Shown here one piece after another: positions 1,155-50,896 of a DNA stretch of 64,000 nucleotides. Source of the DNA: Candidatus Thorarchaeota archaeon (GTDB lineage: Archaea; Asgardarchaeota; Thorarchaeia; Thorarchaeales; Thorarchaeaceae). The stretch is taken from positions 64,039-128,038 of the forward strand of contig JAOUFI010000001.1 in the NCBI GenBank assembly GCA_029858305.1. Reading direction: 5' to 3'. The notes under the pieces are model-generated. The model did no database searches, was not told where the DNA came from, and saw nothing but the letters and a program-made list of their open reading frames with translations. A program made the position numbers and the translations under genes. Within the stretch, counting starts at the first letter, position 1; each line of letters begins with the position of its first letter.

Positions 1155-4278
<3,124 letters not shown>

Positions 4279-6745: not shown

Positions 6746-7357
6746 GTGGTCTTCATGCCCGAAAAAAAAGTTAGGATTCTCAAGCTTCTCAGTGTCGCAC
6801 TAACACGAGAAAAACAAGTCATACTCCTAGAAGAATTAAAGCGATACTCAGCAGCAACAAATTGGGTTATCAAGACCATTCTCAAAAACCTCCTGAGAAG
6901 TCCTGCTAGAATAAAAGAGGCAATTGAGGATACATTTGTGAAGGAGTATGACAATAGAGCGGTCTATCTTGACAATGTCATAGCATCTGCTCGAGCAGAG
7001 ATAGCGAAACATACCAAATTGGCAATGACAATACGGAGCATGAGAGAAAAGACTCCGTTTTTCCGGTCTGGAAGATTGATTTTGTCTCAGCCAATTATCA
7101 AGGTTGGAGATAAGGCAGTAGTACTCAAACTAATGGATAGAACTGAAATTGCGATACCATATGATAAGCGAAGTAGGAACCGGCTTGCACCCGAAATAGA
7201 TTCAATTCTCAGAGGAGAACCAAGAACACCTGATACATCTGGTATAATGCAACTCAATAAGAGGTATGAACGAATTCGGCTAACATGGAATAATGAGGGA
7301 TTCGTGGACATCGATATCAGAGCTTTCCTACCTGAGAATGATGACGTTGGCTTATAG
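6746..7357 (+). CDS. hypothetical protein; weak resemblance to the N-terminal (pre-RuvC) half of TnpB/OrfB-type proteins
   Basis: 203-aa ORF (alternative ATG at 6755). The overall pattern (KVRILKL...REKQVILLEEL...SAATNWVI, then beta-rich ...YERIRLTWNNEGFVDIDI at the end) resembles IS605-OrfB N-termini. No RuvC or Zn-finger part follows. Resemblance judged by eye only. Confidence 0.45.
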   Translation: MVFMPEKKVRILKLLSVALTREKQVILLEELKRYSAATNWVIKTILKNLLRSPARIKEAIEDTFVKEYDNRAVYLDNVIASARAEIAKHTKLAMTIRSMREKTPFFRSGRLILSQPIIKVGDKAVVLKLMDRTEIAIPYDKRSRNRLAPEIDSILRGEPRTPDTSGIMQLNKRYERIRLTWNNEGFVDIDIRAFLPENDDVGL

Positions 7358-10679: not shown

Positions 10680-11504
10680 TCAACATTTGATGAAACTGAA
10701 AGAATCGCTCGCTCCTTCGTCATCAACCCCAAGTTTCTTTCGTATAATTGTCTCATAATCAGGATTAATCTCATACCCTATGGAGTTCCGACCTAATTCT
10801 CGTGCAACTCGTAGAGTCGTTCCGCTACCGGCGAATGGATCAAGGACTGTATCGCCTAGAAATGAATAGAGCCGTATACATCGACGCGGAAGCTCTTCAG
10901 GGAACGGTGCAGGGTGTTGTTCAGTTTTAGCTGAAGCTGGTTGAAAATCCCAGATAGAATTCTGTACCCAGTTTGTGAACTCGTCATGTGTGATCGCAGA
11001 CATCTCCTTTCTCTTTTTATCTACAGGAGGCCGCTTCCCACTCTTGGAGAAGACGATAATCCATTCATAGGGATATGATGCTAATAGGTTAGGAGGATAC
11101 GGGTATGACCCCCACGAACTGAATCGTACTGCTTTCCGCTTGTCCCAGATATACAGAGAATGAAAGTACATGTTGCCGAGGGAATTCATGAATGCCTCTA
11201 GATCTGTTAGGACTGGTTTTGTGAGCCTGCGATTAAACTTCGAAACAGTTCTTGGAAGGAGTATTGGCATTATATCAACTATTAGCTTGCCATCTGGCAC
11301 AAGAGTCCTCACGCATTCTCTGAACACTTCACAGAGAGAATCGAGATATTCATCATAAGTCGAAGAAGATTGGCCAATGGCATCTTTATGCCCATAATCT
11401 TTGAGTTGCCAATAAGGTGGAGATGTGACAATCAAGTGTACGGACTCATCAGGAATTAGGTTCATATTGCGACTGTCACCAATCACCACAAGATGGTTTG
11501 TCAT
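10680..11504 (-). CDS. DNA methyltransferase, beta-class, SPPY type (probable N4-cytosine or N6-adenine)
   Basis: Catalytic motif IV IVTSPPYWQLKDYG lies near the N-terminus. AdoMet motif I VLDPFAGSGTTLRVA lies near the C-terminus. This is the circularly permuted beta order. Confidence 0.85.
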   Translation of the reverse strand: MTNHLVVIGDSRNMNLIPDESVHLIVTSPPYWQLKDYGHKDAIGQSSSTYDEYLDSLCEVFRECVRTLVPDGKLIVDIMPILLPRTVSKFNRRLTKPVLTDLEAFMNSLGNMYFHSLYIWDKRKAVRFSSWGSYPYPPNLLASYPYEWIIVFSKSGKRPPVDKKRKEMSAITHDEFTNWVQNSIWDFQPASAKTEQHPAPFPEELPRRCIRLYSFLGDTVLDPFAGSGTTLRVARELGRNSIGYEINPDYETIIRKKLGVDDEGASDSFSFIKC

Positions 11505-38924: not shown

Positions 38925-39734
38925 ATGAACAAAATAGTATTGCTAGGAACTGGAACTCCAAATCCGGACCCAGATAGATCTGGACCTTCAGTTGCAATAC
39001 TTGTTAACAAGTCAGTCTATATCATTGATTTTGGACCAGGTATTGTCCGACGCGCAACAGCAGCAGGAATCAATCCATCTCAAATGACTACTGCATTCCT
39101 TACGCATCTACATTCAGACCACACAACGGGGTATCCAGACCTTATCCTTACTCCTGCTGTTGTGGGAAGAACAGAACCTCTGGAGGTTTTCGGACCCAGA
39201 GGGATTTCAGATATGACCAACCACATCATGACCGCCTATGGTGAAGATCTAAGGGAGCGGGAAATATGGTCAACACTCTCAAATGAAAGAGGTTACATAG
39301 TGAACGCTCATGAAATAAGAGAGGGAATAATCTATCAAGATGATTATACAACTGTTGAAGCCTTTCGAGTCGATCATAGTTCATTGGAAGCTTATGGATT
39401 CAAGTTTGTTGTAGAAGATAGAATTATTGTAATCTCTGGAGACACGCGCCCGTCACCCAATCTTATAGCAAAAGCTAGAGGATGCAATGTTCTCATACAT
39501 GAGGTGTACACAGCTGAGGGTTTTAAGGAACGTTCCAAGGAATGGCAGAAATATCACTCAGAAGTTCATACATCAACCTATGAACTTGCAGACATTGCCA
39601 CTCTGGTAAAACCAGACCTGCTTGTTTTATACCACCAGCTTCATTGGACTCGCACGGATGATGAGCTATTATCAGAAGTGACACAGAGATATGATGGTAG
39701 GGTAGTTTCTGGTAAAGACCTAGATGTTTTTTGA
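38925..39734 (+). CDS. MBL-fold metallo-hydrolase (RNase Z/ElaC-like subgroup)
   Basis: LGTGTPNPDPDRSGPS, H-x-H-x-D-H (THLHSDHTTG), and downstream SGDT and HEVY blocks. Confidence 0.8.
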   Translation: MNKIVLLGTGTPNPDPDRSGPSVAILVNKSVYIIDFGPGIVRRATAAGINPSQMTTAFLTHLHSDHTTGYPDLILTPAVVGRTEPLEVFGPRGISDMTNHIMTAYGEDLREREIWSTLSNERGYIVNAHEIREGIIYQDDYTTVEAFRVDHSSLEAYGFKFVVEDRIIVISGDTRPSPNLIAKARGCNVLIHEVYTAEGFKERSKEWQKYHSEVHTSTYELADIATLVKPDLLVLYHQLHWTRTDDELLSEVTQRYDGRVVSGKDLDVF

Positions 39735-39816
39735 AAAGGAATTCACATTGATAGGAATAAGGGATAAAAGATACGAGAGATGGGGAGTTTATAATTATTA
39801 TCGAGAGGTGAATGTT

Positions 39817-39891
39817 ATGCACTTCGATGATGATGACATTTGGGAAGATGATGATGACTGGGACGATGATGACTGGGACGACGATGAGTAA
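39817..39891 (+). CDS. hyper-acidic Trp-periodic microprotein, copy A (24 aa) MHFDDDDIWEDDDDWDDDDWDDDE
   Basis: Below the track cutoff. The conserved 11-mer CGAGAGGTGAA lies 4 nt before the ATG. A paralogue at 45300 differs by synonymous changes and whole-codon indels. Confidence 0.55.
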   Translation: MHFDDDDIWEDDDDWDDDDWDDDE

Positions 39892-39929
39892 TACTCTCCA
39901 ATCTTACTAGTCTTTGCCAGTAGATTGTA

Positions 39930-39970
39930 CTCTTTTTATTGACGGGGCGATGTCGAAAGCAAGCCCCGTC
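39930..39970. terminator. T-run plus GC-rich 8-bp hairpin between convergent genes
   Basis: CTCTTTTTA, then GACGGGGC (39941-39948) pairing with GCCCCGTC (39963-39970). Confidence 0.4.
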
Positions 39971-39999: not shown

Positions 40000-41628
40000 C
40001 TAGGAAATTCGTTTTTTAAGGCTCAGAGTAAAAACAAGGACCAATGCAAGACCAATGCCAGCCCCAAGAAAGACTCGATTCATGTTGGGAAGAGTTACTG
40101 AAGTGGACTGAGAAATCGTTGTCCAGTATGCATCATTATTTGTAGTACTCGTCGTACTTGTTATTGTGGTGGTTGTGTCATCAAGTATCGAAGAGGTTGA
40201 GGTTGATGTAACTGTGATTACACCTCTGGGAGGTACAGGAATAGAGGTTGTTTCTTGCAGATACGAATCAACAGCATAACCTACAACTCGCTCAACATAT
40301 TCAGAGGTATAGGCATCTAATTGGTTATCAGAGAGACCATCTGGAATTTGATTGATGAGGTACTCATACTCTTCGATAGTGTAATCCTCGGCATAGAAAG
40401 CATTGTTTTGTATTTCTTGAACACGATTAGGATCTAACAATATTGGATTTGCCTGCACCTGAGCAGAGAGCCATTTCTGATAGGTATAAGACGACATAAG
40501 TCCCAAAATAGCAGGGGTTTCCCTTGCAACCACCATTGAAGGCACAAAAACTCCAATAAGGGGGGTAATTCCATATGCGCCCCACATGATGTTGAGCTTG
40601 CCATTGTATCTTGAATCTCCACTCACAGCAACCATGGAAGCCCCTGTATTTGGGTTGCATGCTTCTCCATCTATCGAAAAACTCACAGAACCAAGCTCTT
40701 TATCCCGAACATATCTTGATGATTTCTGCATCACATCGCTCCAGGTGATGAAACCATTTTCTTCATATATTTCATCAAGGGCGTCAAGCAAATATTGGTC
40801 TCTGCCGCTTGGTCCGCTGGCCAATCCAGGAAAGATCCGCGCGTGGTTTGCGCGTGTGTCATATCCATTCACGATATATTGGACATAGGCTTGAGTATTG
40901 CTAATCTCAAAGAAGGCGCCTGCGCCAAACCGGTCAATCACTCCAATGCAGGTAGCGATTGCTCCTGCTGTTGATCTGTAGTATGGACCTATCAATGACC
41001 GTGAGTTGTTTAGATCTCGAGCCACATCTTCAACAGACTCGTACTTTTCTAGTATCCACCTGTTTAGAACCAGATTACCTATCCCATATTCATGTTCTAA
41101 TTCTGGCATTGCTGTATTCATCACTGCAAGACCACGTTCATTGATTCCCATCGCATTGGTATTCACAGCAACAAAGGCAAATGACGAGGTAGTAGCAGGA
41201 ATATAGACCGGCATATTAAACAGGTCTTCAGGGGAATCACGATTCTTCATGAGTATAGGACGACCATCCTTTGTAGCATCGCCTGTCACAATTACTGAGC
41301 TACATTCTTCAGATTGGTTAGTATGTGGGTAAGAATTTTGGGGAGTTACTAATGACCTTGTTGAGGTGTAAGTGTCTTTAGTGATATCATGAATAGGATA
41401 AATTGTAACCAAGAGTAGCATGGCATTGAAAAAAGCCAAGAGAATTACCAATGTCACTACCTTGTCTATATTGGCCATGGCATATATCGCCAATAGGAAA
41501 CTATTATGAAAACCAAATAAACGAAGCCTCTCGCGCAATCCAACCTTCGAAGAAGAGATACTGTTTTGCAGTGAGGTCGTCTTTATGTAGTAGTTTTGAT
41601 AGACCAAATTCATCGCGGGGAATGACAA
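40000..41628 (-). CDS. membrane-anchored Ntn-hydrolase-type peptidase/acyl-hydrolase (C45/C69-like)
   Basis: Candidate nucleophile context EECSSVIVTGDATKDGRPILMKNRDSP after an N-terminal TM segment. Thr/Ser-rich linker (TSTSTSSILDDTTTTITSTTSTT) and a C-terminal TM plus KKR. The true start is probably the ATG at 41478 (MANIDKVV...), because the 41628 start abuts the divergent gene. Confidence 0.5.
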   Translation of the reverse strand: MSFPAMNLVYQNYYIKTTSLQNSISSSKVGLRERLRLFGFHNSFLLAIYAMANIDKVVTLVILLAFFNAMLLLVTIYPIHDITKDTYTSTRSLVTPQNSYPHTNQSEECSSVIVTGDATKDGRPILMKNRDSPEDLFNMPVYIPATTSSFAFVAVNTNAMGINERGLAVMNTAMPELEHEYGIGNLVLNRWILEKYESVEDVARDLNNSRSLIGPYYRSTAGAIATCIGVIDRFGAGAFFEISNTQAYVQYIVNGYDTRANHARIFPGLASGPSGRDQYLLDALDEIYEENGFITWSDVMQKSSRYVRDKELGSVSFSIDGEACNPNTGASMVAVSGDSRYNGKLNIMWGAYGITPLIGVFVPSMVVARETPAILGLMSSYTYQKWLSAQVQANPILLDPNRVQEIQNNAFYAEDYTIEEYEYLINQIPDGLSDNQLDAYTSEYVERVVGYAVDSYLQETTSIPVPPRGVITVTSTSTSSILDDTTTTITSTTSTTNNDAYWTTISQSTSVTLPNMNRVFLGAGIGLALVLVFTLSLKKRIS

Positions 41629-44201: not shown

Positions 44202-45098
44202 TCAATCTCGACCATCTATCATATATTTGGTATTCAATCCAAGATTGTAAATCCGTTTCAAGGATTTTTCAGCATCAAAGAACCATAAGGTTTTGGCAAG
44301 CTTCCATTTGAATTTGAGCGTTCGATATCGCCGTAAAACCGCAGCTGATTGCTTTCTCAGAGCGTCTGTAGGAATCAAGGGATTCTTGCTCAACTCACGA
44401 AGTTCTTGAAGTTTAGATTCGATAGATAAAAGATCTCTATTCAAAGTTCTCTCAATAGCTTCTTTGATTTGTACTGAATCTAAGTGATCAGCCAACCGAA
44501 GGCGAGACCACCGCATAGTCTGCGCGCCCATAGATTTGAGTTGATTACTGAATTCCTTTGAGTCTAACAATGAATGTCCCTTTTCGTAGTCTAGGATTTT
44601 TCTACGCTCTCTAGCTCGCAATACGGGAAATAGAAGAACACCTGGCCTGAGTCGGACTCCTATTGATCTTCGTAGGAGACGTTCGACTCGCTTTTTCTGT
44701 CCAGGAGTTGGACTATTAAAACTGTAAGATACAATCGAGTAGGCTCGATAAGCGTGTGGGTCATCAAGCCGAGCTTTAATTCCAAGGATTTCACGAGTTC
44801 GAATGAAAGTGAGTGATGGCAATGATTGAAGTATATCAGTGTAGATGCCAACATTTGAGCCTGCAATAAAGAGCCCCTTCCCAACACGTACCAAATCGTC
44901 GTATTGCATTAATTTCTTTGAAATTCCTCGGATGCCATCCTTTGACCCGAGAAGCACAACTAGTCGTGATGTGCCCTTTAGATCGAGCTGGACAAGTTGG
45001 ATACTTTCAATATTCGTCTCGTTCACGATGATTAAACCATCCATAATTAGAATCTGATTGTGACTTAATACGCTTACATGAAAACCAGAGTGACACAC
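44202..45098 (-). CDS. hypothetical protein; central segment with a Cas2/VapD-like beta-alpha-beta pattern
   Basis: 298 aa (GTG start; alternative ATG at 45044). The segment YSIVSYSFNSPTPGQKKRVERLLRRSIGVRLRPGVLLFPV resembles the ferredoxin-fold core of Cas2-type proteins by eye only. The C-terminal part is helical. Confidence 0.5.
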   Translation of the reverse strand: MCHSGFHVSVLSHNQILIMDGLIIVNETNIESIQLVQLDLKGTSRLVVLLGSKDGIRGISKKLMQYDDLVRVGKGLFIAGSNVGIYTDILQSLPSLTFIRTREILGIKARLDDPHAYRAYSIVSYSFNSPTPGQKKRVERLLRRSIGVRLRPGVLLFPVLRARERRKILDYEKGHSLLDSKEFSNQLKSMGAQTMRWSRLRLADHLDSVQIKEAIERTLNRDLLSIESKLQELRELSKNPLIPTDALRKQSAAVLRRYRTLKFKWKLAKTLWFFDAEKSLKRIYNLGLNTKYMIDGRD

Positions 45099-45299
45099 TC
45101 GTGCGATAGCTATAACCGTTAAAATCTTTATTGTGGCTACCTAATCATCCTACTCTTATAAAAAGAGTTTGATAGATATTTTTTAAAAGTATAAAAATCG
45201 CATATATCTTATTTGGCTAAATAAGGGTCTATAAATCGCATATTGTGTGTTAGACATATTTTACATTTGTTTTGTCTACGCAAGCCGAGAGGTGAAAAA

Positions 45300-45383
45300 A
45301 TGGTCTTTGATGATGAAGATACCTGGGAAGACGATGACGAAGACTGGGACGACGATGATGACTGGGACGATGATGATTTCTAA
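45300..45383 (+). CDS. hyper-acidic Trp-periodic microprotein, copy B (27 aa) MVFDDEDTWEDDDEDWDDDDDWDDDDF
   Basis: Same CGAGAGGTGAA element, 3 nt before the ATG. The track instead lists Met/Thr-rich and antisense frames of the same repeat. Confidence 0.55.
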   Translation: MVFDDEDTWEDDDEDWDDDDDWDDDDF

Positions 45384-45481: not shown

Positions 45482-45577
45482 ATGGGTAGTAAGAAACCGA
45501 CAACAAAGAAACCTCCTGCAAAGAAAGCAGGTGCAAAGAAAGAAGCGAAAGCTACTGAAAAACCAAAGAAAAAATAA
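45482..45577 (+). CDS. Lys-rich basic microprotein (31 aa) MGSKKPTTKKPPAKKAGAKKEAKATEKPKKK
   Basis: ATG with GGTG 8-11 nt upstream. It lies 98 nt after the acidic microprotein gene and is followed by a long hairpin and T-run. Confidence 0.45.
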   Translation: MGSKKPTTKKPPAKKAGAKKEAKATEKPKKK

Positions 45578-45589
45578 CAAATGACTACA

Positions 45590-45658
45590 ACTGGTGAGTC
45601 AACCCACCTGTTAAATTAGAACAGCTATGGAGAGACTCACCGGTCATCTTTCTTTTCC
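45590..45658 (+). terminator. 11-bp hairpin (one G-U) plus T-rich tract
   Basis: ACTGGTGAGTC (45590-45600) pairs with GACTCACCGGT (45634-45644). It is followed by CATCTTTCTTTTCC. Confidence 0.45.
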
Positions 45659-47887: not shown

Positions 47888-50800
47888 GTGAAGGTAGAGA
47901 AACGAGATCGGAGAATTGTAGACTTTGATGATTCGAAGATTGAAGCTGCTATAACAAAAGCCTTCGAAGCGGGAAATATAGACACTAGTCCGGTTCGTGG
48001 CATCACAAAAGAAGTGGTTCAGATAATCCATGAACGCGGGAAGGAGGTCATCAATATTGAAGAGATACAGGATATTGTTGAAGACACTCTGATGCTACGA
48101 GGTTTTACAGATATTGCACGGCGATACATGAAGTACCGTGAGAAGCATCAGGAAGCCCGAAGAATCCTCCAATTGGTTGGCGTAGTGGATGATCTCAAGT
48201 TCGGTCCAAATGCGGCTACCGTGTTAAAGAGATATCTTCTGAAAAATGAGGAGGGCAAAGCTATTGAAACGCCATCACAGCTTTTCAGGAGAGTGTCTGG
48301 AGCTGTGGCGAGCATTGAGAAAAAGTATGATGAAAGTGCCGATGTAAAAGAATATGATGACCTCTTTTACTCTATGATGGCGAATCTTGAGTTTCTTCCT
48401 AATAGCCCAACTCTCTTCAACGCTGGCACAGCACTTGGTCAGTGCAGTGCATGTTTTGTACTTCCAATTGATGATGATATGAACTCTATCTTCACCTCAC
48501 TAAAGCATATGGCCATGGTTCAGAAATCGGGTGGCGGGACAGGATTCTCATTCTCGAGATTACGACCCAAGGGAGCCAGAGTTGGTACCACCGGAGGAGT
48601 GGCAAGCGGACCGGTTTCATTCATGCGCGCGTACGATACAGCTACTGATGTCATCAAACAAGGAGGTCGAAGAAGAGGCGCGAATATGGCGATACTCCGG
48701 TGTGATCATCCGGATATTATGGAATTTATATCATGCAAGTCCGATAAGCAGGCATTTCGCAACTTCAACATCTCAGTTGCAATAACAGAGAAATTCATGT
48801 CAGCATTGAGAAACGATGCAGAAATAGAGCTGATTAGTCCTCATACAAAGGAGTCAGTCAAGAGTATTAGTGCAAGAGCAATCTTCGACGCAATCGTGCA
48901 TAACGCCTGGAACACCGGTGACCCGGGACTCATCTTCATAGATCGGATTAATGAGAAGCATCCACTCAGCGGAGAACTGATCGAGTCTACAAATCCTTGC
49001 GTATCAGGGGATACTATTGTCAGTACTAGTAAAGGATTGATGAATATCCAAGATGTACCTGGTGTGATGAAAACTGCAAAGAAACTTGTCTTTCGTCTTC
49101 AGACAAAGGAAGGATATCAAGTCAAAGTGACCAGAGATCATCGAATCCTTACAATATCTGGATGGAAACAGGCAGGGGATTTGTGTAAAGGTGATAAACT
49201 ATGCCTTCAAGTTAATGAGGAGGGATTCGGTCAAACAGGCAATCTCCGAATTGGTCAAATTCTTGGATGGTATGTTGGAGATGGATGGAGTACTGGAAAG
49301 GATCGTCGAGCCACTCTTGCATTCTATGGAAGGGATAAAGGAAGGCTGACTCATTATTTCCTCAGCATTGTAAATGAGGAGCTCGAATCTGATTTAGTAG
49401 TAATAAAGAGCAAGAAACGAGAGGAGGTCAGGTCCAGGAGGATTTTGAAGCTTGTTCAAGACTGGGAGATGGAATCAAAAAATATATCGAAACTTTTACT
49501 CTCATCATCAATGGAATGTCAAAGAGGCTTTTTGCAAGGATTATTCAGCGCAGATGGATCAGTCCAAGGAAGCCACCAAAAAGGTTTCACAGTACGACTA
49601 TCTCAAAGCAATCTGGATGTTCTCCGTCGTGTGCAAATTATGCTACTCAACTTTGGAATCGTTGCCAAAATTTATTCGAATAGACGGAGTGAACAAAAGC
49701 GATTAATGCCTAACAGTAAAGGACAACCCAATCTATACAGAACCAGAGCGAGTCATGAGCTAATTATATCAAAAGAGAATATTGTGGAATTCCGAGATAG
49801 GATTGGTTTTCTCCTAGAGTACAAGCAGAAGCGATTAGTCGATGGTATAGAGTCATTAAAAGCACGTGGCCCTTACAAAGAGAGATTCTTTGCGAAATTT
49901 GAATCATTAACACCTCTTCAGGAAGAAGACGTCTTTGACATTGTTGCAACGCCTAGAGGTGGTTTTGTTGCAAACGGAATCATTGTGCATAATTGTGGCG
50001 AACAACCCCTATTACCCTATGAATCATGTGTTCTTGGAAGCATAAATCTCTCAAAAATGGTTAGAGAAGGCGAGGTTCATTGGGAACGTCTTGAGGAGGT
50101 TATTCGCCTTGCTGTTCGATTCTTGGACAATATCATCGATTTGAATGTCTACCCAGTTCCTGAAATTGAAACAGTAACGAAGGCGAATCGAAAAATCGGA
50201 TTGGGAATAATGGGATTTGCAGAACTCCTCATTCAGCTTGGGATTCCCTATGATTCAGAAGGAGGTCTTGAGAAAGCAGAGAAGATCATGTCTTTCATCA
50301 AACAGAGAGCAGAACGTGCCTCCTCAGAACTGGCAAAGATACGAGGGAATTTCGAGAACTTCGCCCTTTTGAAGAAACGCAACACTTGGAAACGTAATGC
50401 TACGTTAATTACCGTGGCGCCCACAGGTAGTATCGGTCTAATCGCGCAGACATCCAGCGGTATAGAACCATTATTTGCAGTGGCTCACAGTCGAATATTA
50501 GCCGAGGGTATCAATCTCAGCGAGGTGAATCCTCTTTTCAAAGTGATAGCTGAGAAAAGGGGGATATGGACAGATGAGATTGAACGTCAGCTTGTGAGAA
50601 CGGGGACTGTTCAAGACATAGATTCAGTGCCTGAAGATATCAAACGTCTCTTCAAAACAGCACACGAGATTGATCCAACATGGCATGTTAGGATGCAGGC
50701 ATCTTTCCAAAAACACACAGATAATGCAGTAAGCAAGACTGTGAATCTTCCAAATCAGGCTACCACAGAGGATATCGAACGTATATTCCTATTGGCTGAT

Positions 50801-50896
50801 GAGCTCCAGCTCAAAGGTATAACCGTCTTTAGGGATGGATGCCTTGATGGAGTTCAAGTCCTCTATAGTGGATGTACAAATTGTGAAGTTCAGTAA
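47888..50896 (+). CDS. nrdJ: adenosylcobalamin-dependent (class II) ribonucleotide reductase with N-terminal ATP-cone, interrupted by an intein
   Basis: ATP-cone VEKRDRRIVDFDDSKIEAAI. The active-site motif TNP|C...HN|CGEQPLLPYESC is split by 332 aa. The exteins total 670 aa. GTG start. Confidence 0.92.
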   Translation: MKVEKRDRRIVDFDDSKIEAAITKAFEAGNIDTSPVRGITKEVVQIIHERGKEVINIEEIQDIVEDTLMLRGFTDIARRYMKYREKHQEARRILQLVGVVDDLKFGPNAATVLKRYLLKNEEGKAIETPSQLFRRVSGAVASIEKKYDESADVKEYDDLFYSMMANLEFLPNSPTLFNAGTALGQCSACFVLPIDDDMNSIFTSLKHMAMVQKSGGGTGFSFSRLRPKGARVGTTGGVASGPVSFMRAYDTATDVIKQGGRRRGANMAILRCDHPDIMEFISCKSDKQAFRNFNISVAITEKFMSALRNDAEIELISPHTKESVKSISARAIFDAIVHNAWNTGDPGLIFIDRINEKHPLSGELIESTNPCVSGDTIVSTSKGLMNIQDVPGVMKTAKKLVFRLQTKEGYQVKVTRDHRILTISGWKQAGDLCKGDKLCLQVNEEGFGQTGNLRIGQILGWYVGDGWSTGKDRRATLAFYGRDKGRLTHYFLSIVNEELESDLVVIKSKKREEVRSRRILKLVQDWEMESKNISKLLLSSSMECQRGFLQGLFSADGSVQGSHQKGFTVRLSQSNLDVLRRVQIMLLNFGIVAKIYSNRRSEQKRLMPNSKGQPNLYRTRASHELIISKENIVEFRDRIGFLLEYKQKRLVDGIESLKARGPYKERFFAKFESLTPLQEEDVFDIVATPRGGFVANGIIVHNCGEQPLLPYESCVLGSINLSKMVREGEVHWERLEEVIRLAVRFLDNIIDLNVYPVPEIETVTKANRKIGLGIMGFAELLIQLGIPYDSEGGLEKAEKIMSFIKQRAERASSELAKIRGNFENFALLKKRNTWKRNATLITVAPTGSIGLIAQTSSGIEPLFAVAHSRILAEGINLSEVNPLFKVIAEKRGIWTDEIERQLVRTGTVQDIDSVPEDIKRLFKTAHEIDPTWHVRMQASFQKHTDNAVSKTVNLPNQATTEDIERIFLLADELQLKGITVFRDGCLDGVQVLYSGCTNCEVQ
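48998..49993 (+). mobile_element. intein with LAGLIDADG homing-endonuclease domain
   Basis: It starts with Cys (CVSGDTIV) and ends IVHN, followed by the +1 Cys. Two LAGLIDADG blocks are present (LGWYVGDGWS, LQGLFSADGSV). It is in frame and 332 codons long. Confidence 0.85.

Follow-up and report, generated by a model that had tools for sequence, protein, structure and literature searches.

A hyper-acidic, tryptophan-periodic microprotein gene of Thorarchaeota and its candidate relatives across Asgard and TACK archaea

The window analysed here is a stretch of 64,000 nucleotides (nt) from contig JAOUFI010000001.1 of a Candidatus Thorarchaeota archaeon (assembly GCA_029858305.1), and our subject is one very short open reading frame (ORF) within it, hereafter copy A, which encodes a hyper-acidic peptide with periodic tryptophans and has a paralogue, copy B, in the same window. 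Copy A is placed at the end of a row of PNPOx, MarR and MBL genes, with a convergent gene after it, and comprises the following elements:

39789..39796 (+): TATA-box-like element TTTATAAT, about 25 nt upstream of the copy A ATG; putative promoter element
39804..39811 (+): Shine-Dalgarno sequence 5 nt ahead of the copy A ATG; core GAGGTGA at 39805-39811
39817..39891 (+): copy A ORF, ATG at 39817 and TAA at 39889-39891; 24 codons plus stop; product MHFDDDDIWEDDDDWDDDDWDDDE
39930..39970 (+): T-run CTCTTTTTATT (39930-39940) and 8-bp GC hairpin GACGGGGC/GCCCCGTC (39941-39970), 3' of copy A

The 24-codon ORF reads as it was described in a first-pass annotation of this DNA: 17 of its 24 residues are Asp or Glu and three are Trp, at positions 9, 15 and 20, which gives a net charge of -17. 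Only copies A and B show this acidic/Trp composition in the window, and a pattern requiring three Trp in acidic surroundings matches these two ORFs alone, with no matches in 100 shuffles. The same annotation had taken the gene to be invisible to the ORF list, which is not strictly so, as copy A is the 3' end of a listed 55-residue ATG ORF (39724-39891). This longer ORF is called as a gene by the gene caller in a 99%-identical strain, where the internal start is GTG, and its N-terminal extension is not conserved.

The expression signals could be placed more exactly. The TATA-like element is present one base to the right of the position first given (39788-39795), and the 11-nt element CGAGAGGTGAA, correctly located at 39802-39812, can now be identified as carrying the Shine-Dalgarno sequence, with the GAGGTGA core 5-6 nt before the ATG. 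This 11-mer has exactly two sites in the window, 39802-39812 and 45286-45296, the second belonging, as proposed, to the paralogue at 45300-45383. GAGGTGA alone occurs eight times, three of them just upstream of an ATG (those of the MarR gene, copy A and copy B), and Shine-Dalgarno-like motifs are carried by a minority of the long genes in the window. The T-run and GC hairpin reported to follow copy A were found as well, in a region that folds at -25.4 kcal/mol (z = -3.7), and they probably mark the 3' end of the copy A unit ahead of the convergent gene at 40000-41628 (-); scans of the window for sigma-70 promoters and intrinsic terminators are uninformative for an archaeon. The convergent gene itself encodes a 542-residue, membrane-anchored protein resembling AAT/C45-type acyltransferases and occurs only in the window and in the 99%-identical strain L172. 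It is missing between the MBL and MFS genes of the relatives L001, L004 and L006, and therefore represents a lineage-specific insertion or loss.

Comparative evidence indicates that copy A is a real coding gene, presumably translated, in the Asp/Trp frame and under purifying selection. Compared codon by codon, copies A and B differ by six synonymous changes, two Asp/Glu swaps, two other replacements and three whole-codon insertions or deletions, in agreement with the tally of synonymous, Asp/Glu and whole-codon differences made at first pass. Across seven copy B orthologues, recovered through synteny and pattern scans, 17 of 81 alignment columns are variable and 15 of these 17 are third codon positions (hypergeometric P of about 2e-7); 12 codons vary synonymously only, and the encoded residue changes at four (V/I, T/I and, twice, Asp/Glu). 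A check of orthologous loci, which had been suggested from the outset, shows the Shine-Dalgarno sequence, the ATG and the stop to be invariant in the aligned orthologues, with diverging spacers between. Part of the original argument for this frame has nonetheless to be given up: the B orthologues uphold the frame, but the whole-codon indels are weak coding evidence because trinucleotide repeats slip in threes anyway, and since the third-position pattern fits the antisense frame too, that frame is excluded on start and stop grounds, as set out below.

Orthologues of copy A itself tell of both maintenance and loss. In L139, L154 and L171 the same MBL-fold gene is followed after 63-65 nt by an A-type ORF (MHFDDDDLWEEEDWDDDEWDDDDDW), and in L173 after 57 nt by a more divergent one (MLFIDEDDQWIDEEEDWGDDVWEDDDDW, TTG start); the ORFs are 83-85% identical across these loci and their flanks 27-43%. 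The A-type orthologues keep Phe3 and four Trp, even where, as in L173, acidic residues have been replaced by Ile, Gln, Gly or Val. A convergent gene follows copy A and every A-type orthologue. L139 holds both paralogues, about 4.6 kb apart, and the duplication is thus old. By contrast with these intact genes, L001, whose MBL protein is 84% identical, carries a pseudogenised remnant of copy A at 10805-11165, in which ATG has become ATA, the ORF is cut to IHFDDDDE followed by two stops, GAGGTGA has become GAGGCGA, and the TATA-like element (now TCAACAAT) and the Trp repeats are lost, the downstream hairpin being retained; copy A is deleted in L004 and L006. This decay and deletion imply that the intact copies are being maintained and, as they occur where copy B is kept, that copy A is dispensable there and decays fast once selection lapses. 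That the closest relatives are without copy A might have marked it as an insertion specific to the window, an explanation we rejected given the orthologues in distant Thorarchaeota and the L001 remnant.

Copy B stands in a setting of its own, with the following elements:

44202..45044 (-): p280, uncharacterised 280-residue protein, divergent from copy B; net charge +22, isoelectric point (pI) 10.25
45250..45269 (+): upstream block TTAGACATATTTTACATTTG, invariant in four orthologues, with a varying spacer around it; candidate BRE/TATA promoter of copy B
45286..45296 (+): 11-mer with the copy B Shine-Dalgarno sequence, identical to the copy A 11-mer
45300..45383 (+): copy B ORF, 27 codons plus stop; product MVFDDEDTWEDDDEDWDDDDDWDDDDF, net charge -19
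45482..45577 (+): Lys-rich 31-residue microprotein MGSKKPTTKKPPAKKAGAKKEAKATEKPKKK, 98 nt 3' of copy B; net charge +11
45593..45656 (+): hairpin GGTGAGT...ACTCACC, then TCATCTTTCTTTT; stem kept in four orthologues

In all close relatives copy B is flanked by the approximately 280-residue gene on the minus strand and by a cupin gene, and GCCGAGAGGTGAAAAAATG upstream of it is invariant among four aligned orthologues. The Lys-rich microprotein is conserved among orthologues with synonymous changes and has its own AGGTG motif; the hairpin that follows it, in which one pair has changed on both sides in two of four orthologues, is a probable terminator of a unit made up of the acidic and the basic microprotein. 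Lys-rich ORFs also lie 8-102 nt 3' of acidic ORFs in L047, L138, L139, L162, L150/L163, L156, L165/L170 and L175, and the order of acidic followed by Lys-rich ORF recurs in at least eight independent lineages, with spacing of sometimes just 8-44 nt. A Lys-rich microprotein gene usually comes after the B-type genes of Thorarchaeota and their relatives. Searches with the Lys-rich peptides against Pfam and NCBIfam returned no family.

The divergent neighbour is just as constant a companion. In every lineage examined the p280 gene and a B-type acidic ORF are divergent neighbours, at p280 identities from 82% down to 34-39%, and the pairing reaches one Hodarchaeota and one Promethearchaeota record; the p280 family is Thorarchaeota-centred, with a few other Asgard records. 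All 37 aligned homologues are strongly basic (pI 10.0-11.2, net charge +18 to +31, median +27), and p280 is one of two ORFs with a pI of at least 10 among the 49 window ORFs of at least 150 residues. The homologues are annotated as hypothetical only, no Pfam family was found for p280, including in a scan of the 37 members, and a profile search of PDB sequences was empty. The AlphaFold2 model of p280 is confident (pLDDT 86.7), and Foldseek finds weak similarity to PaaX, Rv0674 and Cas2 (E = 4e-3, TM of about 0.26).

To place the peptides more broadly, we used a generic scan covering one genome per species. Among the matches listed, Trp-periodic acidic runs either form the tails of larger bacterial proteins or make up microproteins of their own, the latter in Thermoprotei, Bathyarchaeia, Nitrososphaerota, Thorarchaeota, other Asgard lineages and Micrarchaeota. 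In metagenomes, the pattern ATG-x-Phe-acid4-x-Trp-acid4 gave 43 loci, nearly all of them tiny ORFs. With all listed loci pooled, the search of related genomes and metagenomes proposed by the first-pass annotation yields 52 ORFs and 28 distinct peptides of 17-44 residues. The Shine-Dalgarno core is present at 47 of the 52 loci, 23 of the 28 distinct peptides have a C-terminal Trp or Phe, and the spacing from one Trp to the next is most often 5. Short length, Shine-Dalgarno sequence and aromatic C-terminus lie outside the search pattern, which itself imposes the N-terminal motif M-x-F-acid4-x-W-acid4.

The acidic peptides match no family in Pfam or NCBIfam, ten of them looked up exactly in a collection of 15 billion proteins were all absent, and a scan of viral contigs for the acidic/Trp pattern gave no matches. 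Literature searches with the motif strings led only to a paper on ObgE, and conceptual searches to no description of an acidic/Trp microprotein family. That the family is missing from protein databases is explained by the length of its products, 17-44 residues, and their low complexity. Judged by their sequences, the acidic/Trp microproteins therefore appear to be an undescribed family of Asgard and TACK archaea, as had been suspected at first pass.

Several larger or composite proteins are worth recording beside this family. In L059 (Thermococcaceae), a 53-residue ORF on the minus strand near 6845-6882 (MQPPKKKKKVEDYEEE...EDWDEEEWEEEDWDEDEDW) combines in a single chain a Lys-rich N-terminal part and an acidic tail with periodic Phe/Trp, and looks like a natural fusion of both microprotein types; a search for homologous proteins gave no match to it. 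Actinobacterial proteins of about 130-160 residues in L035, L048, L052, L063 and L124 (Micrococcoides, Corynebacterium, Yaniella and Rothia) have Pro/Ala-rich linkers and terminal (WDDD[D])n tails, a recurrent form of the motif as a bacterial protein tail. In L122 (Methanomethylicia), at about 1650-1975 on the match strand, a 90-residue protein matching PF21344, NF041070 and PF09538 carries a LysW-type Zn ribbon and a long Glu/Trp tail ending in Trp, and a 15-residue Lys-rich ORF (MAEKKPEEKKPKKKK, Shine-Dalgarno sequence GGAGGTGA) lies 50 nt downstream of it.

In TACK archaea the gene context is a different one. Thermoprotei, Bathyarchaeia, Nitrososphaerota and other Thermoproteota together supply 26 loci at which a gene for a Glu-type microprotein (for example, MVFEEEEEWEEEDWEEEEWEEEEW) immediately precedes ABCE1 in the same orientation; the ABCE1 identities span 49-100%. 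Upstream, Cgi121 is a frequent neighbour, and an RPB9-type Zn-ribbon gene sometimes lies between the microprotein and ABCE1. The gap to ABCE1 is just about 50 nt in L042. The Bathyarchaeia spacer, roughly 120 nt long and compared in L133 (10081-10314, -) and eight other loci, contains a T-run and the strongly conserved, promoter-like blocks CGAAAAGTTTTTAGCA, TCTGATTTTAAGGCTCA, TATTTATG and TAGTTGCTG, which may be promoters. In RNAalifold these nine loci, a limited sampling, show no covarying switch (covariation term -0.07 at -7.8 kcal/mol), and a switch acting between the microprotein gene and ABCE1 was provisionally rejected.

What copy A does can be addressed only through this context. We give roughly even chances to the proposition that it is a translated gene for an intrinsically disordered polyanion acting in trans on basic partners. 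Its product would be a free-standing acidic-aromatic docking peptide, in which the Asp/Glu runs would provide a long-range electrostatic pull toward strongly basic, typically nucleic-acid-binding, surfaces, and Phe3, the Trp at every 5-7 residues and the C-terminal aromatic would serve as hydrophobic or cation-pi anchors. Docking might then neutralise, chaperone or competitively block the partner, much as a mimic of nucleic acid or of an acidic tail would. The likeliest partners in this genome would be the two proteins of complementary charge encoded around copy B, p280 (+22) and the Lys-rich microprotein (+11), with copy A as a second, partly redundant copy. A trans-acting product is favoured because the convergent gene 3' of copy A and of all its orthologues leaves no downstream gene for it to lead, and the conserved aromatics in a variable acidic matrix, the aromatic termini, the linked basic p280 and the Lys-rich partner together suggest a docking peptide of the acidic-aromatic kind. 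Of the functions initially put forward, neutralisation of a basic partner and nucleic-acid mimicry thus gain from p280 (pI of about 10.3) and the Lys-rich context at copy B; no partner of the Arp2/3, kinesin or coat-adaptor type is encoded near the copies.

Several observations weigh against the docking-peptide proposal. Copy A is dispensable in close relatives, is not adjacent to any basic protein (its neighbours are acidic), and has a C-terminus (...WDDDE) without the terminal Trp of its orthologues. The linked gene in TACK archaea, ABCE1, has a pI of 8.4 and is not strongly basic, so that a single partner class may not exist. Homology between the Asp-type peptides of Thorarchaeota and the Glu-type peptides of TACK archaea, argued from composition and motif, is unprovable because the sequences are of low complexity. 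Furthermore, ORFs with poly-acidic N-termini are reported to abort translation in bacteria and eukaryotes (PMC9718836), and efficient synthesis of the peptide is consequently not guaranteed.

The ABCE1 linkage invites a different function, in which the peptide would be a ligand of the translation apparatus: a free copy of the acidic-hydrophobic tails that dock on ABCE1 and translational GTPases, such as the aP1 C-terminus and the eIF3j N-terminus, competing for the tail site and so modulating ribosome recycling or initiation. We regard this as possible though unlikely. Besides the 26 TACK loci, it can draw on the binding of the aP1 peptide EEEVSEEEALAGLSALFG to ABCE1 NBD1 through Leu and Phe (PMC6125642) and of the eIF3j N-terminus to ABCE1 at a similar site (PMC7780240). 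The window, however, contains no ABCE1, neither Thorarchaeota paralogue is linked to a translation gene, the bridge from Asp-type to Glu-type peptides is one of composition and motif, and the binding is suggested by analogy.

Just as unlikely, in our estimate, is a role in cis, in which translation of the ORF matters more than its product: a poly-acidic, Trp-containing nascent chain would destabilise or arrest the ribosome and thereby tune the downstream gene, namely the Lys-rich ORF and the cupin gene here and ABCE1 in TACK archaea. Intrinsic destabilisation of the ribosome has its prototype in acidic runs that begin at codon 4 (PMC9718836; 10.1101/2021.02.02.429294), and twin-ABC factors handle such sequences in bacteria (PMC11162784, PMC11282234). 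The arrangement is also suitable in part, since in TACK archaea the ORF invariably precedes ABCE1 in the same orientation, at close range in L042, as it does the Lys-rich ORF at copy B. A leader position ahead of a regulated gene is thus formally found for copy B and the TACK relatives, for which such a sensor role is plausible, but copy A, like every A-type orthologue, closes its gene row and faces a convergent gene. Against it stand also the T-run and promoter-like blocks that separate the microprotein gene from ABCE1 in Bathyarchaeia, the spacer without a covarying switch, and the conserved C-terminal Trp/Phe and p280 linkage, neither of which a leader ORF needs.

The explanations that follow are largely excluded. 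That the peptide binds cations (Mg2+, Ca2+, Fe), or carries a metabolite at its C-terminus as LysW does, seems to us improbable. Its extreme carboxylate density would suit such a role, copy A ends in Glu as does the EDWGE tail of LysW, and in the L122 protein an acidic-Trp tail is joined to a LysW-type Zn ribbon; yet Cys and a Zn ribbon are absent from both copies, orthologues do not keep the C-terminal Glu, no ATP-grasp (LysX/ArgX) or metal-transport gene is consistently nearby, and chelation leaves the Trp periodicity unexplained.

We consider it very improbable that the locus holds no gene, being either a GAT/GAC trinucleotide repeat that drifts and is open by chance or a small RNA such as a C/D-box sRNA. 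GAUGAUGA does resemble a C box, Tandem Repeats Finder reports repeats with a period of 15-18 nt, whole-codon indels would be expected of any trinucleotide repeat, and Rfam models of archaeal C/D-box RNAs give sub-threshold matches (13-16 bits against gathering thresholds of 35-60, E-values of 0.16-0.9). We rejected the sRNA because these scores fall below the gathering threshold, CUGA D boxes are lacking, and the Glu-type relatives (GAA/GAG) have the same peptide architecture without UGAUGA; and the non-coding microsatellite because start, stop and Shine-Dalgarno sequence are kept across lineages and variation is concentrated at third positions (15 of 17 columns). The TGG codons, moreover, stay in register, and the L001 copy decayed rapidly once its start codon was lost.

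Least credible of all, to the point of being negligible, is that another frame is the real one, for the +1 Met/Thr ORF (39812-39910), despite its own ATG, accumulates 0 synonymous against 133 non-synonymous pairwise differences and meets stops in the copy B orthologues, as the first-pass annotation anticipated in naming the acidic peptide as the target of selection, and the antisense Ser/Gln frame, whose third positions coincide with those of the sense frame and which scores better still (121 synonymous, 12 non-synonymous), is cut off by a stop at its 5' edge, while none of 12 loci offers a start codon before the Ser run.

Two further features of the window lie apart from these genes. The class II ribonucleotide reductase gene at 47888-50896 contains an intein of about 332 residues (CVSGDTIV...IIVHN|C; 48998-49993, +), and its orthologue in L006 is without the intein and 96-98% identical on both sides of the site. 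The archaeal 23S rRNA gene at 1162-4271 (-) is isolated: neither 16S rRNA nor 5S rRNA nor tRNA was detected by Rfam and ARAGORN in the whole 64 kb, and the rRNA genes therefore appear unlinked.

The microproteins point to a gene family that spans two archaeal superphyla, including the closest relatives of eukaryotes, and that protein databases have overlooked. They would make hyper-acidic, Trp-anchored ligands the products of independent archaeal genes, where previous examples were either microproteins of eukaryotes (DSS1, CSNAP) or the tails of larger proteins, and they have stable gene partners in the basic, uncharacterised p280, the Lys-rich microprotein and, in TACK archaea, ABCE1. They accordingly bear on charge-driven regulation in archaea and on the origin of the acidic-aromatic motifs in eukaryotic translation and chromatin machinery. 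A more far-reaching and distinctly doubtful idea is that the Asgard and TACK peptides regulate basic nucleic-acid-binding proteins and ABCE1 and, with their Lys-rich partners, are forerunners or independent equivalents of DSS1/Sem1, the eIF3j motif and the AA-box/K-box pairing; for peptides of such composition, a relation to the eukaryotic motifs cannot be established.

Comparison with known systems establishes membership of the archaeal peptides in no known family, and the resemblances that we do see differ in kind. LysW/ArgW and the FYDLN_acid family are likewise small, very acidic prokaryotic proteins, but the four-Cys Zn ribbon of LysW/ArgW has no counterpart in either Cys-free copy, neither of which matches PF21344 or NF041070; at the C-terminus, copy A ends in Glu, its orthologues in Trp and copy B in Phe; and the neighbours are PNPOx, MarR, MBL, MFS, GNAT, cupin and p280 genes, with no ATP-grasp gene among them as LysX/ArgX linkage would require. 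The pairing of acidic with Lys-rich microprotein genes resembles, as a conceptual parallel only, that of AA-boxes with K-boxes. eIF5 and eIF2B-epsilon carry acidic-aromatic boxes (AA-boxes). The Lys-rich K-boxes are those of eIF2-beta (PMC12439599). These boxes are segments of large eukaryotic factors, and nothing indicates relatedness.

The C-terminal tail of aP1, the archaeal ribosomal stalk protein, docks on ABCE1 NBD1 and translational GTPases (PMC6125642), and in it, as in the microproteins, an acidic run leads to hydrophobic or aromatic anchors close to the C-terminus. The tail differs in using Leu/Leu/Phe anchors in a short helix, with no periodic Trp, and in being tethered to the ribosome by the P1 N-terminal domain; neither the N-terminal dimerisation domain nor the ...LxxLFG tail of P1 is found in the peptides of 24-27 residues.

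The closest analogues are the eIF3j acidic motif, the ObgE tail and DSS1/CSNAP. The eIF3j motif is centred on Trp52 and binds the eIF3b RRM, with the Trp in a hydrophobic pocket ringed by Lys (PMC2824034), and the eIF3j N-terminus contacts ABCE1 (PMC7780240). This contact parallels, by analogy and synteny, the ABCE1 gene linkage of the TACK peptides, whereas eIF3j/Hcr1 is a protein of about 260 residues with a helical dimerisation core and a single key Trp. We know of no archaeal eIF3. The E. coli ObgE tail EDWDDDWDE (EEDDEDWDDDWDEDDEE) binds the strongly positive DNA groove of YbiB in competition with DNA, its Trp being essential for high affinity (PMC10123104). It shares with the archaeal peptides Trp set in Asp/Glu runs, at a spacing of four residues, but is part of a 390-residue bacterial GTPase and has two Trp instead of three or four.

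Among these, DSS1 and CSNAP are the closest free-standing analogues. Both are small, acidic, disordered proteins that fit into basic crevices on the complexes they bind; for DSS1, DNA mimicry is the reported mode of action (PMC8442969 and references therein). Like the archaeal peptides they are encoded by separate genes and have conserved aromatics (Trp in DSS1, Phe in CSNAP) flanked by Asp/Glu, and a comparable conservation is seen among the 28 distinct archaeal peptides at Phe3, the Trp positions and the terminal Trp/Phe, a likeness in kind that is no proof of homology. They differ in length (57-89 residues against 24-27) and in being restricted to eukaryotes, with the PCI complex, BRCA2 and RPA as partners; DSS1, unlike the archaeal peptides, has a C-terminal helix and non-repetitive motifs, and hmmscan of copies A and B against Pfam-A at E-values up to 10 returned no families and hence no DSS1_SEM1 match. 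In kind, the peptides are an archaeal, much shorter and repeat-like variant of the small acidic-aromatic disordered adaptor proteins of eukaryotes.

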